Assembly: GCA_964634365.1 (NCBI GenBank) | Contig: CAZWJU010000001.1 | Coordinates: forward strand, 167,028 to 231,027 | From: an uncultured Candidatus Saccharibacteria bacterium | Lineage (GTDB): Bacteria > Patescibacteriota > Minisyncoccia > Phycocordibacterales > UBA9973 | Length of the DNA stretch: 64,000 nucleotides | Direction of reading: 5' to 3' | Shown: positions 29,949-36,621 of the stretch, in pieces | Layout of the letters: each line of letters begins with the position of its first letter | Position numbering within the stretch: position 1 is the first letter of the stretch | Made by a program: the position numbers and the translations under genes | Notes under the pieces: model-generated | What the model was told of the DNA's origin: nothing | The model's input: only the letters and a program-made list of their open reading frames with translations | Databases searched by the model: none

Positions 29949-31564
<1,616 letters not shown>

Positions 31565-31568
31565 AAAT

Positions 31569-32453
31569 TTAACTAACACTTGCCATTCCGGCACTAATTT
31601 CTGATATTTCTTTTGTGATCGCAGCCTGACGCGCTTTGTTGAACGCCAGTGTCAGATCATCGATCATTTCTCCTGCAGCTTCCGACGCATTCTTCATCGC
31701 CATCATGCGAGAGGACTGTTCAGACGCACTAGACTCTAAGAGCATTTGATACACCTGACTTCGTGCAAGTTTCTCTACAAGTGCAGACATGAGGACTTCA
31801 TACCCTGGCTCGAAAGTATAGGAATAGTTTGTAGAATGAGCCATTTGATCTAAATCTTCTACAGACTCTCGAACTTCATCTTTCGATATTGGAAGAAGCT
31901 GACGGACAACTGGTTTTTGAACAAGTGGATTTAGAAAATCTGTATAAGCAACAGATACCTTATCGTATTTTTCATTTTTGAAATCACTGATTATGAGATC
32001 TGCAATCGGCAATATTTCACGAAGTGTTGCGTTTTCTGGAAGCTCTAAGAACGAAGCGACGACATTTTGCCCGAGTCTTCGAAGTGCATTCTCGCCTTTT
32101 TTACCAACTGCAACGAAATCAATTTGCTGACCTTCGCTTTCACGGATCATTTGTAAAATCTTGCGGATAATCTGTGCGTTGTATGCACCACAGAGTCCAC
32201 GGTTGGAAGTTATGAGCACAACAAGAGACTTGCCACCTGTACGCTTTGTAAGTAATGCATGTTCTGATTCATTTTGAACAACAGACAGAGCCTCGAGTAG
32301 CGTCCAAGATTCGTGTGCATATGGACGAGACGAGACAGCTGAAGCAACGGCGCGCTTCATTTTGGAAGCAGAAACCAGCTCCATCGCTTTGGTTATCTTC
32401 TTAGTGTTTTTAACACTCTTTATTCGTCTTTTTATATCAAGTGATCCTGCCAT
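31569..32453 (-). CDS. atpG: F1 ATP synthase subunit gamma
   Basis: The product begins MAGSLDIKRRIKSVKNTKKITKAMELVSASKMKRA and has a conserved gamma C-terminus. Confidence 0.9.
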   Translation of the reverse strand: MAGSLDIKRRIKSVKNTKKITKAMELVSASKMKRAVASAVSSRPYAHESWTLLEALSVVQNESEHALLTKRTGGKSLVVLITSNRGLCGAYNAQIIRKILQMIRESEGQQIDFVAVGKKGENALRRLGQNVVASFLELPENATLREILPIADLIISDFKNEKYDKVSVAYTDFLNPLVQKPVVRQLLPISKDEVRESVEDLDQMAHSTNYSYTFEPGYEVLMSALVEKLARSQVYQMLLESSASEQSSRMMAMKNASEAAGEMIDDLTLAFNKARQAAITKEISEISAGMASVS

Positions 32454-32460
32454 AATAAAA
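32425..32460 (-). repeat. Repeat copy R1: atpG translation-initiation region (TAA-ttttatt-ATGGCAGGATCACTTGATATAAAAAG)
   Basis: This is one of three near-identical copies; see the findings. Confidence 0.8.
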
Positions 32461-32796
32461 TTAGGAACCTATTGAAAATAATAATATTATTCCTACAACT
32501 GCAAATACACAGTTAACAATCGAAACAGACATCAATGCTATATCTCCTTTTATACGTCCGACATTCTCAGTCTTTCGCATACAGCTTATCAGAGACTTAA
32601 TTACTCCACTAAGCGAAAAAATAATAGTCAAAACTACTAGAGAAATTAGCACAAGGAAAAATGGGCGTACCAAATCGCCAAGTTCAGCTTGTCTCGAGAT
32701 CAAAAAAGCAAAAGATAAGGATTCCAATATCCAAAGAATTGTCAGCGTGATATTTATTTTTATTAGTGTGTTTTTCATATCAAGTGATCCTGCCAT
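32461..32796 (-). CDS. Small 3-TM membrane protein, paralog C (the first 6 codons MAGSLD are a copy of the atpG start; the true start may be MKNT at 32778)
   Basis: It is paralogous to the two upstream ORFs in TM spacing and in the motif SLSGVIKSLISCMRKTEN. Confidence 0.5.
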   Translation of the reverse strand: MAGSLDMKNTLIKINITLTILWILESLSFAFLISRQAELGDLVRPFFLVLISLVVLTIIFSLSGVIKSLISCMRKTENVGRIKGDIALMSVSIVNCVFAVVGIILLFSIGS

Positions 32797-32806
32797 AAAT
32801 TAATAA
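32771..32806 (-). repeat. Repeat copy R2 (TAA-ttt-ATGGCAGGATCACTTGATATGAAAAAC)
   Basis: This copy is identical to R1 over about 27 nt except for 1 to 2 positions. Confidence 0.8.
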
Positions 32807-33141
32807 ATATTATTTTTGAATAAATTTGTAATTGCAAAGAAACCAACACTGCATACAAGAAGTGCTATCGATACAACACGCAACTTCCTTTCAAATCCCA
32901 ACATCAATGGATTATTCAATCGATTAATTTTTCTAGCACGCAGGAGACCTGAAACAGCAAAGACACAAGAGAACACTAGTAGGACAAAGGAAGAAATATA
33001 AGAAATCAGCATTGCCCAGAAAAAATATATATTCTGAGAATCAGCACCTAGGAAAAAAATAAGAATAATTACAACCCAAATTCCAACCAATATTTGATTG
33101 GTTCGGTAAATAAATTTTTCTGTTGTGTCTTTGTTTTCCAT
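32800..33141 (-). CDS. Small 3-TM membrane protein, paralog B
   Basis: The 113-aa product has the motif AVSGLLRARKINRLNNP between TM2 and TM3. Confidence 0.5.
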   Translation of the reverse strand: MENKDTTEKFIYRTNQILVGIWVVIILIFFLGADSQNIYFFWAMLISYISSFVLLVFSCVFAVSGLLRARKINRLNNPLMLGFERKLRVVSIALLVCSVGFFAITNLFKNNIY

Positions 33142-33154
33142 AATTGGTTAGGTT

Positions 33155-33190
33155 TATCTTTTTATATCAAGTGATTCTGCCATAAAATTA
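33155..33190 (-). repeat. Repeat copy R3 (TAA-tttt-ATGGCAGAATCACTTGATATAAAAAGATAA, forming a 9-codon mini-ORF MAESLDIKR)
   Basis: This is the third copy and differs by G to A at one position. Coordinates are +/-2. Confidence 0.75.
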
Positions 33191-33553
33191 ATGATTAAAT
33201 GAAAAAATAAATACGAGAACACAAAGTGTTAACATTCCCATAAGAATATTGGTAATTGAATACATAAACAATCCTTTATGCTTACCATCAAGAGGACTTG
33301 GGTTTTTTCTTTTAAAACCAGATAGGCGGATTATCGAAGAGATTCCAAATACTAATGAGAGTATCACCAAAAAAGGACTAATAAACATTAAAAACAAAAC
33401 AAAAATAATTCCGAAAAACGAAGTAGATTGACTAAAATATTCGCGATTATTTCCTATATTTTGGATCAATGTAATTATTAACAAGAGTACCCATGTTCCC
33501 CACAGGATTGAAATTATCTTATTTGTTTTTAGAATAAGATTTAATTTTTGCAT
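33188..33553 (-). CDS. Small 3-TM membrane protein, paralog A
   Basis: The 121-aa product has the motif GISSIIRLSGFKRKNPSP. The gene starts 3 nt after the atpA stop region. Confidence 0.5.
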   Translation of the reverse strand: MQKLNLILKTNKIISILWGTWVLLLIITLIQNIGNNREYFSQSTSFFGIIFVLFLMFISPFLVILSLVFGISSIIRLSGFKRKNPSPLDGKHKGLFMYSITNILMGMLTLCVLVFIFSFNH

Positions 33554-33555
33554 AA

Positions 33556-35058
33556 TTAGTTAAACGTGCTCTTAAAACTCTCAATCGTTTCTTTTAATTT
33601 AACTTCACTCTCATCACTCCACATTTTCTTCTCCACCACATCAGTCACAAATTCTTTACAATTTGCTTCTACATAGTCGATAAGCCCTGCTTCAAATTCC
33701 TTGATCTTCGCTACAGGTATCGTGTCCATGTATCCGCGAGTAAGTGCGTAAAGTGAGATTACTTGGTGTTGTACAAGCATCGGTGAGTACTGAGTTTGCT
33801 TGAGGAGTTCAACTGCACGGCGTCCGCGTTCGATCTGATTGCGAGTTGCTTGGTCAAGATCAGAACCGAATTGTGCAAATGCTTCTAGTTCACGGAACTG
33901 TGCAAGGTCGAGTTTCAAAGTTCCAGCCACTTTCTTCATAGCTTTGATCTGAGCAGAACCTCCCACACGAGACACAGAAAATCCGACGTTTACCGCAGGA
34001 CGAATACCTTTGTAGAAAAGGTCAGTTTCGAGGAATATCTGTCCGTCAGTGATAGAGATCACGTTTGTCGGGATGTATGCACTGATGTCTCCAGCTTGAG
34101 TTTCGATGATAGGAAGAGCTGTGATAGATCCTCCGCCGTGTTCAGGATTGCGACGACATGCACGTTCAAGAAGTCTTGAGTGAAGGTAAAAGACGTCTCC
34201 AGGATACGCTTCACGTCCTGGTGGTCGACGAAGAAGAAGCGAGATTTCACGATACGCAACTGCGTGCTTTGAAAGATCATCGTATATGATGAGCGCATCT
34301 TGGCCTTTGTGCATAAAATATTCTGCGATTGTAATACCTGCATAAGGAGCAAGGTATTGCATCGGAGATGGATCTGATGCTCCTGCCGAAACTATGACTG
34401 TATAGTCCATCGCTCCAGCTTCGCGAAGACGAGTTTCGAGTGCGCGGAGTTTTGAATCTTTTTGTCCGATAGCGACATACACGCAGATCATGTTCTGACC
34501 TTTTTGGTTCAATATTGTATCGATTGCGATTGCAGTTTTACCAGTTTGTCTGTCACCGATGATAAGCTCACGTTGTCCTCGTCCTACTGGAACAAGCGCA
34601 TCGATAGCTTTGATACCAGTTTGTACTGGTTGATCTACTGACTGACGAGTAATAACTCCCGGAGCGACGGATTCGATCGGCATATTTTTCTCTACCTTGA
34701 TATCACCTTTACCGTCGAGAGCTTGTCCGAGTGGATTAACAACACGTCCGACGATAGAGCCACCGACACCGATTTCAAGAATCTTACCTGTAAGACGAAC
34801 CTCCTGACCCTCTTTGATATTTCCGTAACCACCCAAGATGATAATACCTACTGTGTCGTCTTCTAGGTTTAAGGCTACACCTGTCGCACCATCTTCGAAA
34901 GTAACCATCTCAGACATCTTTACTCCGCGAAGTCCTGATACACGAGCAATACCATCTCCGACTTCAAGCACAGTACCTATCTCTTCACGAACAGCACCAC
35001 CATGGAAGCCGGCGATTTCATTTTTCAATTGTTCAATTATGTGTTTTGTGTTGGACAT
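33556..35058 (-). CDS. atpA: F1 ATP synthase subunit alpha
   Basis: The product has Walker [10 protein letters not shown]. Confidence 0.95.
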
Positions 35059-36016: not shown

Positions 36017-36313
36017 TTATATTTCTCCGTAATAGCTCTTGACCCTTTTTACAAATTCATCTACATCATCTTTGTGTAGCATGTAATCATGGTAAGAACC
36101 CGTACCTTTACCCTCTTTATCAAAAACATTTTTTAACTTCAAACCTTCGCCAAGATTTTCATAATCTGCATCTAGTCCATCAACAAATCTGCTTATGTAC
36201 TGGGTTTGTCTACCACCAAGAAGCTTTCTTGCTATGTCACTCATCTTTACAAACCCTTCCATGTCACAAGGTAAATTCTCGGGATTTTGATTTTCTTCAA
36301 TTTTTATTTTCAT
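36017..36313 (-). CDS. Soluble ~98-aa protein of unknown function encoded between atpE and atpF (start taken as MKIKIEENQ)
   Basis: The ORF lies on the operon strand and fills the 390-nt c-to-b subunit gap. It has no TM helix. The longer ORF-track version overlaps atpE. Confidence 0.45.
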   Translation of the reverse strand: MKIKIEENQNPENLPCDMEGFVKMSDIARKLLGGRQTQYISRFVDGLDADYENLGEGLKLKNVFDKEGKGTGSYHDYMLHKDDVDEFVKRVKSYYGEI

Positions 36314-36390
36314 ATTGAATCTGCAGTTAGCAGATAAAGATTTACGATTTTGATTGATAGGATCAAGCTCGTAAACCCAAAATCTACCAA

Positions 36391-36621
<231 letters not shown>

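Follow-up and report, generated by a model that had tools for sequence, protein, structure and literature searches.

The window, as the whole analysed stretch of 64,000 nucleotides (nt) is called here, carries on its minus strand an F-type ATP synthase operon of a Patescibacteria, Nomurabacteria-like genome, and this report concerns a short repeat within that operon. The operon is ordered atpI-like, atpB, atpE, an inserted open reading frame (ORF), atpF, atpH, atpA, three small genes designated A, B, and C, atpG, a 71-amino-acid (aa) membrane ORF, atpD, and atpC. The closest genomes in searches with atpG were those of uncultivated Patescibacteria labelled Nomurabacteria or Paceibacteria. The repeat is the 5' end of atpG itself, a 27-mer (ATGGCAGGATCACTTGATATAAAAAGA) that is present at the genuine start of the gene (copy 1), at the start of gene C (copy 2), and between genes A and B (copy 3). 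Coordinates are collected in Table 1.

Table 1. Position of the atpG start repeat and of the surrounding operon features in the window
Feature	Position	Strand	Remarks
atpI-like	37896-37609	minus	
atpA (alpha subunit)	33556..35058	minus	stop codon forms the fixed left edge of the variable interval
Gene A, 121 aa, small membrane protein	33188..33553	minus	first cassette after atpA
Copy 3 with its TAA, atpG 5' fragment, mini-ORF MAESLDIKR*	33154..33183	minus	27 nt, 1 mismatch (G8A)
Spacer between copy 3 and gene B, acctaaccaatt	33142..33153	minus	12 nt
Gene B, 113 aa, small membrane protein	32800..33141	minus	
Copy 2, atpG 5' fragment fused in frame to gene C	32770..32796	minus	equals atpG nt 1-20
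Gene C	32461..32796	minus	111 aa with the captured ATG as start, 105 aa with its own ATG (32778)
Copy 1, genuine atpG 5' end (MAGSLDIKR)	32427..32453	minus	7-nt spacer to the TAA of upstream gene C (32461-32463)
atpG (ATP synthase gamma subunit)	31569..32453	minus	Pfam PF00231, E = 1.4e-89

A pattern search of the 64 kb placed the 27-mer on the minus strand at 32453-32427, 32796-32770, and 33183-33157, with 0, 3, and 1 mismatches, respectively, and none of 100 shuffles of the window contained a match, which confirmed the three near-identical copies proposed in an earlier sequence-only reading of this DNA. A separate repeat search extended the repeat to 29 nt and gave spacings of 343 and 387 nt. 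Every copy equals nt 1-20 or 1-27 of atpG and is a partial copy of the end of a flanking gene. Copy 2 matches atpG through nt 20 and then enters the start of gene C (ATGAAAAAC), with which it is in frame (MAGSLD-MKNT...), and copy 3 forms a 9-codon ORF, MAESLDIKR-stop; both were read in the sequence as previously described. In copies 3, 2, and 1, the ATG follows the upstream TAA by 4, 3, and 7 nt, respectively, within the 3 to 7 nt reported earlier. The distance from the mini-ORF stop to the gene B start, given previously as 14 nt, is 12 nt (acctaaccaatt). The claim that the core differs at one or two positions held for copy 3 (1 mismatch) and failed for copy 2, which has 3 mismatches over 27 nt. 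Beyond the repeat, the DNA flanks of the three copies could not be aligned, and the encoded proteins are 22-27% identical, in agreement with the strong divergence noted for the surrounding coding sequences. The spacer after copy 3, together with the following ATG, matches the junction at the atpA stop, TAAC[C/T]AATTATG, at 11 of 12 bases by eye in AT-rich DNA, which is suggestive only of a left-hand partner for the copy 3 junction.

No other gene with its start duplicated upstream was found in a scan of all ORF starts in the window. An assembly artefact as the cause of the array was ruled out by an independent assembly (L115), which is 100% identical over 4.7 kb, and by the same B-C-atpG arrangement in seven further contigs from other sequencing runs. 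A CRISPR-like or tandem-repeat interpretation was rejected on the basis of the 343- and 387-nt spacings, the coding nature of the intervals, and the identity of the repeat with the atpG start.

Related loci were obtained with atpG as the query. A protein search yielded a clade (66-97% identical) with MAGSLDIKRR as its common N-terminus, and the contigs of this clade were compared with the window; the start region of the window atpG was conserved in 20 of the 22 top homologues retrieved (P0001-P0018, P0020). A contig scan with atpG returned distant relatives alone (no more than 62% identity), which supplied L001 and L028 and not the clade of the window. A metagenome scan with a 20-mer returned five loci, of which L091 (of the L086 type) was relevant and the rest were chance matches in unrelated genes.

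The interval between atpA and atpG varies throughout the clade. It contains no gene in L099 and L105 (atpG 68-71% identical); a B orthologue alone, straight after atpA and with no 27-mer, in L086, L091, and L095 (73-74%); a pyrophosphatase-like gene and then a C orthologue in L082 (80%); another small gene and then a C orthologue in L111 and L112; a 196-aa gene and then a 45-aa ORF in L083 (74%); and a 199-aa gene and then a 45-aa ORF, in place of A-B-C, in L081 (97%). A C orthologue adjoins atpG on its upstream side in L093 (90%) and L094 (87%), whose contigs end within C. The seven sister-strain contigs (L113, L114, and L116-L120) match the window at 95-98% identity from B through C and atpG to atpD, as well as in atpA, and gene A is replaced in them by an unrelated gene of 174 or 119 aa. 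Homology to the window restarts at 33202 or at 33180, the latter a position within copy 3 (the breakpoint of L118 and L119), and in L081 it restarts at 32463, just ahead of atpG; the left limit in swapped strains is always the atpA stop. The sets {A, B, C}, {174 aa, B, C}, {119 aa, B, C}, and {199 aa, 45 aa} occupy one site between flanks that are 95-98% identical, and the atpA-atpG interval is a cassette swap hotspot with breakpoints at the atpA stop and at the 27-mer copies. Pfam gave no match for the four replacement proteins scanned (174, 119, 199, and 196 aa). At L016 4275-5665, atpA itself is apparently split, with residues 4-304 covered by tblastn and the C-terminal part in an ORF of its own, and a single 106-aa membrane protein precedes atpG; the split could be due to a frameshift, an assembly error, or an insertion.

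Relatives that carry the same genes were found to carry decayed copies of the 27-mer or none. Copy 3 was seen in one strain group alone. Its ATG reads ATA in L113, L114, L116, L117, and L120, and AGA with three further changes in L118 and L119; the copy reads ATAGCAGAATC... in the 174-aa group and AGAGCAGAGTCACTTTATATAAAAAGA in the 119-aa group, and the version without ATA, in two sister contigs, reads AGAGCAGAGTCACTTTAT.... The B protein is identical in these strains without the mini-ORF start, its gene differing by two synonymous changes. Ahead of the B orthologue of L086 and L095 there is no copy of the 27-mer, and B directly follows atpA. Copy 2 persists as relics of differing quality, namely ATGATAGGATCACTAGGT (MIGSLG) in L111, ATG------TCACTTAGT (MSLS) with a 6-nt deletion in L082, ATACCAAGGATAAATTGAT with no ATG and with an in-frame TAA in L112, and a barely recognisable remnant in L093. 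The start of C itself, ATGAAAAA(C/T), is kept in all C orthologues. A further decayed prefix follows C in L111.

The rate of this decay was compared with that of synonymous sites. Divergence of gene C at 4-fold sites between the window and its relatives is 11-36%, or approximately 0.1 per site per lineage, and a neutral 20-nt stub would remain unchanged with P ~0.1 per lineage. The perfect copy 2 of the window is therefore not anomalous, and the loss or decay of copies where the genes are kept is compatible with the 4-fold-site rate. The 27-mer of atpG itself varies synonymously in L112, L083, L099, and L105, and therefore no clade-wide nucleotide constraint acts on it; every strain that carries B and C shares the same canonical atpG 27-mer. 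The sequence-only reading had offered selection at the nucleotide level, homogenisation by gene conversion, or a tandem-duplication scar, and had named relatives with the paralogs and without the repeat as a finding that would reduce the element to a simple duplication scar. Such relatives exist, in L086 and L095 for B, in the decayed C copies of L082, L093, L111, and L112, and in the sister strains in which an identical B protein lacks the mini-ORF ATG. The extra 27-mers are probably young, neutral junction scars left by unequal or illegitimate recombination and are not themselves under selection.

An alternative that would place the copies much further back in time is that they date from the duplications that gave rise to A, B, and C and have been kept identical to atpG by short-tract gene conversion from the selected atpG copy, or by resetting whenever a crossover within the 27-mer moves a cassette. 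Copy 3 differs from atpG at 1 of 27 nt and copy 2 at 0 of 20, yet the units are no more than 27% identical and their DNA is unalignable; copy 2 is perfect in the window and decayed in four relatives; and the swap breakpoint of L118 and L119 falls within copy 3. All of these speak for homogenisation. The identity is, however, already accounted for by neutral retention at the probability given above, so that conversion or resetting is not needed, although it may have contributed, and copy 3 is visibly decaying in the sister strains. Nor do the relic and the resident atpG start co-vary in L112 and L083, where each has diverged on its own. Lengths of 20-27 nt are, in addition, at the lower limit for RecA-type exchange. 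Homogenisation is for these reasons considered unlikely.

Selection for a translational role was evaluated next to the decay data. Translational coupling by termination-reinitiation and leader mini-ORFs are known in bacterial operons, and the junctions described here resemble such systems in that a TAA lies a few nt before each ATG and the 9-codon ORF ends 12 nt before B. The 27-mer could be imagined as an atpG start selected before each inserted gene as a proven site of initiation or re-initiation, with the mini-ORF feeding ribosomes to B and the captured ATG starting C. In favour of this, none of the 20 starts inspected between 27000 and 40000 of the window, including those of the operon genes, was preceded by a recognisable Shine-Dalgarno sequence; the captured ATG is the sole start of the 45-aa ORF of L081 and L083 and is kept there despite 7 mismatches; and the copy 2 relic is in frame in L082 and L111. 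Leaders in the same region are A/T-rich, and the distance from one stop to the next start is 2-10 nt for many genes. As no operon gene is preceded by a Shine-Dalgarno sequence, and as TAA-N3-7-ATG is the usual form of gene junction in the operon and not peculiar to the 27-mer, the 27-mer cannot be regarded as a special ribosome site. The mini-ORF start has been lost from all seven sister contigs while the B protein has stayed identical, the element is missing before the B orthologues of L086 and L095, and the start of C itself is conserved in every case, a stop separating relic and C start in L112. A translation module is considered very unlikely.

Structure and binding were assessed over the same copies. 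The palindrome ATCA-CT-TGAT, which is present in all three, had suggested an RNA structure or a protein operator, but a 4-bp stem with a 2-nt loop cannot form, and functional atpG starts in relatives (TCACTAGAT, AGTTTAGAT) do not preserve the palindrome. Folds of the 101 nt around each copy were no better than those of shuffled sequence (z = -1.07, +0.71, and +0.31). An Rfam scan of 31000-34000 gave chance-level matches, none with E < 0.68. Promoter-like sites were not enriched (14 versus 9.3 +/- 3.2 expected), and none was common to the copies. An RNA element or operator centred on the palindrome is almost certainly not the explanation, and selection on the copies at the nucleotide level, as coupling site, structure, or operator, was not supported by any of these comparisons.

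Junction scars of this type were also found to have arisen independently elsewhere. All fetched loci were scanned at the peptide level for upstream ATG codons after which 6 or more of the first ten residues of a downstream conserved gene were encoded, and the reverse-strand control gave no match. In L001, whose atpG is 62% identical, a 33-nt copy of the atpG start follows an inserted 278-aa gene and differs from the resident start at 10 positions, all of them synonymous (P ~5e-7, given that 23% of random substitutions are synonymous). The stub was therefore a working atpG start in another lineage until its import. Approximately 76 nt (ccgatagcagaaccttcacatcgaatgcatgttcgg...) separate this foreign stub from the resident atpG start at L001 1650-1725. 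In L028, a Bro-N-domain gene is fused to atpG codons 1-6. The canonical 27-mer (1 mismatch) opens the 45-aa ORF of L083, while the atpG start of L083 itself is synonymously recoded, and the 45-aa ORF of L081 begins with the 7-mismatch relic. This ORF (L083 5859-5996, L081 1154-1291) apparently also ends with a stub, ATGGCTTTTGATATAAAAAAAGAACTTTAA (MAFDIKKEL*, compare MAGSLDIKR), and as judged from its sequence may consist of two stubs and one transmembrane segment. At the atpD-atpC junction of L083 there are two copies of the atpC 5' end, one of which has the atpD 3' end duplicated next to it, the classic mark of a duplication-type junction with both sides visible. A GC-rich stretch of the atpD-atpC spacer of L083 (8360-8560), in which repeated GGGAGCCTGTAA motifs come after a long perfect inverted repeat (CCCCCACACCTATTTTTT ... 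AAAAAATAGGTGTGGGGG), looks like a structured RNA or a small element.

Stub lengths across the cases are 18, 20, 27, 33, and ~36 nt, and this variation points to breakpoints of illegitimate or unequal recombination and argues against a site-specific enzyme. It bears directly on the proposal that the 27-mer is a recombination site, that is, an attachment-like or homology patch of an integron-like or RecA-dependent cassette system. Cassettes that start with a copy occur in several genomes (B, C, the 45-aa ORF, and the L111 tail), strain-to-strain swaps end at a copy, and genes of mobile-element type sit at operon junctions in relatives. The latter are a Bro-N protein (L028 2702-3538) and a pair resembling a nucleotidyltransferase/HEPN toxin-antitoxin system as judged from the ORF sequences (L004 5355-5986), both between atpA and atpG, and a 23S-rRNA-intervening-sequence protein, PF05635, between atpG and atpD (L095 6971-7294). 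The length of the stub is nevertheless different in every case, the first cassette after atpA never has a copy, and the copies have no inverted-repeat structure. No recombinase was called in the annotated operon neighbourhoods of relatives, which are housekeeping regions, and the Pfam scan of the window covered the small ORFs of the operon and atpG only. A dedicated recombination site is regarded as highly improbable.

The three small genes were compared with each other for evidence of a common origin. Types A and B are homologous (hhalign 90%, E = 1.4e-6), and C aligns with both collinearly but weakly (E = 0.003-0.03); the description of the array as triplicated paralogs is accordingly retained for A and B and is weak for C. 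Protein identities of A with B or C lie within the 22-27% given above, and B and C are 22-25% identical. By contrast, the window B is 47-48% identical to its orthologues and the window C 75-79% identical to those of L082, L093, L111, and L112. The gene types A, B, and C predate the clade, because these orthologue identities are far above their mutual identities. A word-indexed profile search recovered 13 proteins of the family, and an exhaustive hidden Markov model search of 1.84 billion representatives recovered three clusters and two marginal hits. No Pfam family was assigned to A, B, or C in the scan of the small ORFs of the operon, and the family is a tiny, lineage-restricted orphan. Between strains that are ~98% identical in DNA (L113, L116-L120), gene C shows 6-8 non-synonymous versus 2-3 synonymous codon differences, and atpG shows 9-10 synonymous versus 2-3 non-synonymous differences in the same comparison; the sequence differences indicate relaxed or diversifying selection on the fast-evolving gene C.

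Units that were same-age copies of one another would not be expected at 22-27% identity with C marginally related, and the tandem-duplication scar proposed earlier, with a breakpoint inside atpG, is essentially upheld, with one refinement. The stubs are younger than the gene types, and the events therefore joined already-diverged genes and were not the duplications that created the family. The joined genes plausibly came from different strains, an origin of which L001 and L083 are direct examples.

The junction-scar reading can be set out as a series of events, which we infer from the breakpoints and from the age of the stubs, as we do the neutrality of the copies. Two copies of the operon, either on sister chromosomes or with one copy in DNA of a related strain, would have undergone unequal or illegitimate recombination that placed additional genes ahead of atpG. 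The right breakpoint would have fallen just inside atpG, and the left breakpoint at or near the atpA stop. A breakpoint just inside atpG is almost inevitable because the operon is packed, with spacers of 3-12 nt. Viable products would retain an intact atpG and so leave an atpG' stub before the newly placed gene. The copy 2 stub would by chance have been fused in frame with gene C, and the copy 3 stub would have run into a stop, giving the 9-codon ORF. The near-identity of the stubs to atpG is explained by their youth compared with the cassette genes A, B, and C; copy 3 would be limited to one strain group, and copy 2 would be as old as the common ancestor of the C cassettes.

Several observations weigh against this account. 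Copy 2 is perfect over 20 nt in the lineage of the window and has 3-6 changes or indels in four others, a pattern that fits chance (P ~0.1) but is also compatible with conversion or mild selection. Its relic retains an ATG in frame with C in three lineages, the L082 deletion being of 6 nt. The 45-aa ORF depends on a captured ATG, and some stubs are co-opted as start codons, in that ORF and possibly for C in some lineages. The right breakpoints are all short, from 18 to ~36 nt into atpG, which needs selection against longer gamma fragments or later trimming. The left partner of copy 3, the atpA-stop motif, is a match of 11 of 12 bases in AT-rich DNA. The stubs might conversely be more than scars: in an operon devoid of Shine-Dalgarno sequences, each could act as a start codon together with a 20-30-nt homology patch through which RecA-type recombination would insert, excise, or swap cassettes at the atpG start of any related genome, which would make the genes portable, self-expressing cassettes and the locus a recombinase-free, integron-like array in the ATP synthase operon of Patescibacteria. 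This extension is quite unlikely.

Tandem-duplication and unequal-crossover junctions leave a truncated copy of a flanking gene in general bacterial genome evolution, and the locus resembles them in that direct repeats derived from the 5' end of the downstream gene lie between similar-sized units and decay in relatives. The atpC case of L083 shows both partners, an atpC 5' stub beside an atpD 3' stub. The locus differs from such junctions in that the units were strongly diverged beforehand (22-27%, with C marginally related), and from a simple duplication within one genome in that the L001 stub is a synonymously diverged foreign allele, which therefore points to recombination between different lineages. 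It resembles integron cassette arrays in its row of small promoter-less genes at one fixed site with a repeat before each, and differs from them in having no integrase and no attC-type imperfect palindrome, and in that the repeat is variable in length and is the start of a housekeeping gene. Unlike termination-reinitiation coupling, it lacks the conservation that would define such an element, since sister strains have dropped the mini-ORF start and no copy precedes the B orthologues.

A further parallel is provided by what Saunders and Snyder (2002, as cited and used in PMC1797815) termed minimal mobile elements in Neisseria, in which alternative genes between conserved flanks are exchanged by homologous recombination. 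Judged against that description, the present locus is similar in holding unrelated small gene sets at one syntenic site in close strains, with no mobility genes. It is unlike the same description in that the site lies inside an essential co-transcribed operon and that some events are additive and partially duplicate the right-hand flank. Exchange between atpA and atpG presumably also proceeds by homologous recombination in the flanks, possibly following transformation, as the positions of the breakpoints suggest.

Lineage-specific small genes also sit at several other junctions of the operon. An extra ORF between atpE and atpF (36017-36448, minus strand) encodes ~98 aa from a likely true internal ATG near 36313 and had no Pfam match. 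The atpE-atpF junction of L112 holds a 100-aa gene, and the atpH-atpA junction of L111 and L113 holds a 73-aa gene. The 71-aa membrane ORF (...WFLPIIP) between atpG and atpD (31340-31555, minus strand) has an identical homologue in L094, and its homologues in L099 (6908-7263) form a tandem pair (59 and 58 aa) in which the stop of one overlaps the start of the next and no stub can be seen. Within atpG, low-complexity insertions vary among close relatives (P0001, P0003, P0005, and P0020), for example GADNRSTEGADKRSTKGSDEGG in P0005 and the 7-aa KLETTNY in P0001 relative to the window.

Taken alone, the repeat is an ordinary by-product of rearrangement, and its annotation as a regulatory element, upstream ORF, or RNA motif should be avoided. 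Its context is of wider interest: in this Nomurabacteria-like clade, an essential ATP synthase operon serves as a hotspot for the insertion, stacking, and swapping of small, fast-evolving, lineage-restricted membrane-protein genes and of occasional genes from selfish elements. The scars are a readable record of these events; some stubs derive from other lineages, and in some cases a stub now provides the ATG with which a new small ORF begins. Should the small proteins prove to associate with the ATP synthase, the locus would bear on the ways in which Patescibacteria, with their minimal cells, bring diversity to a core machine.

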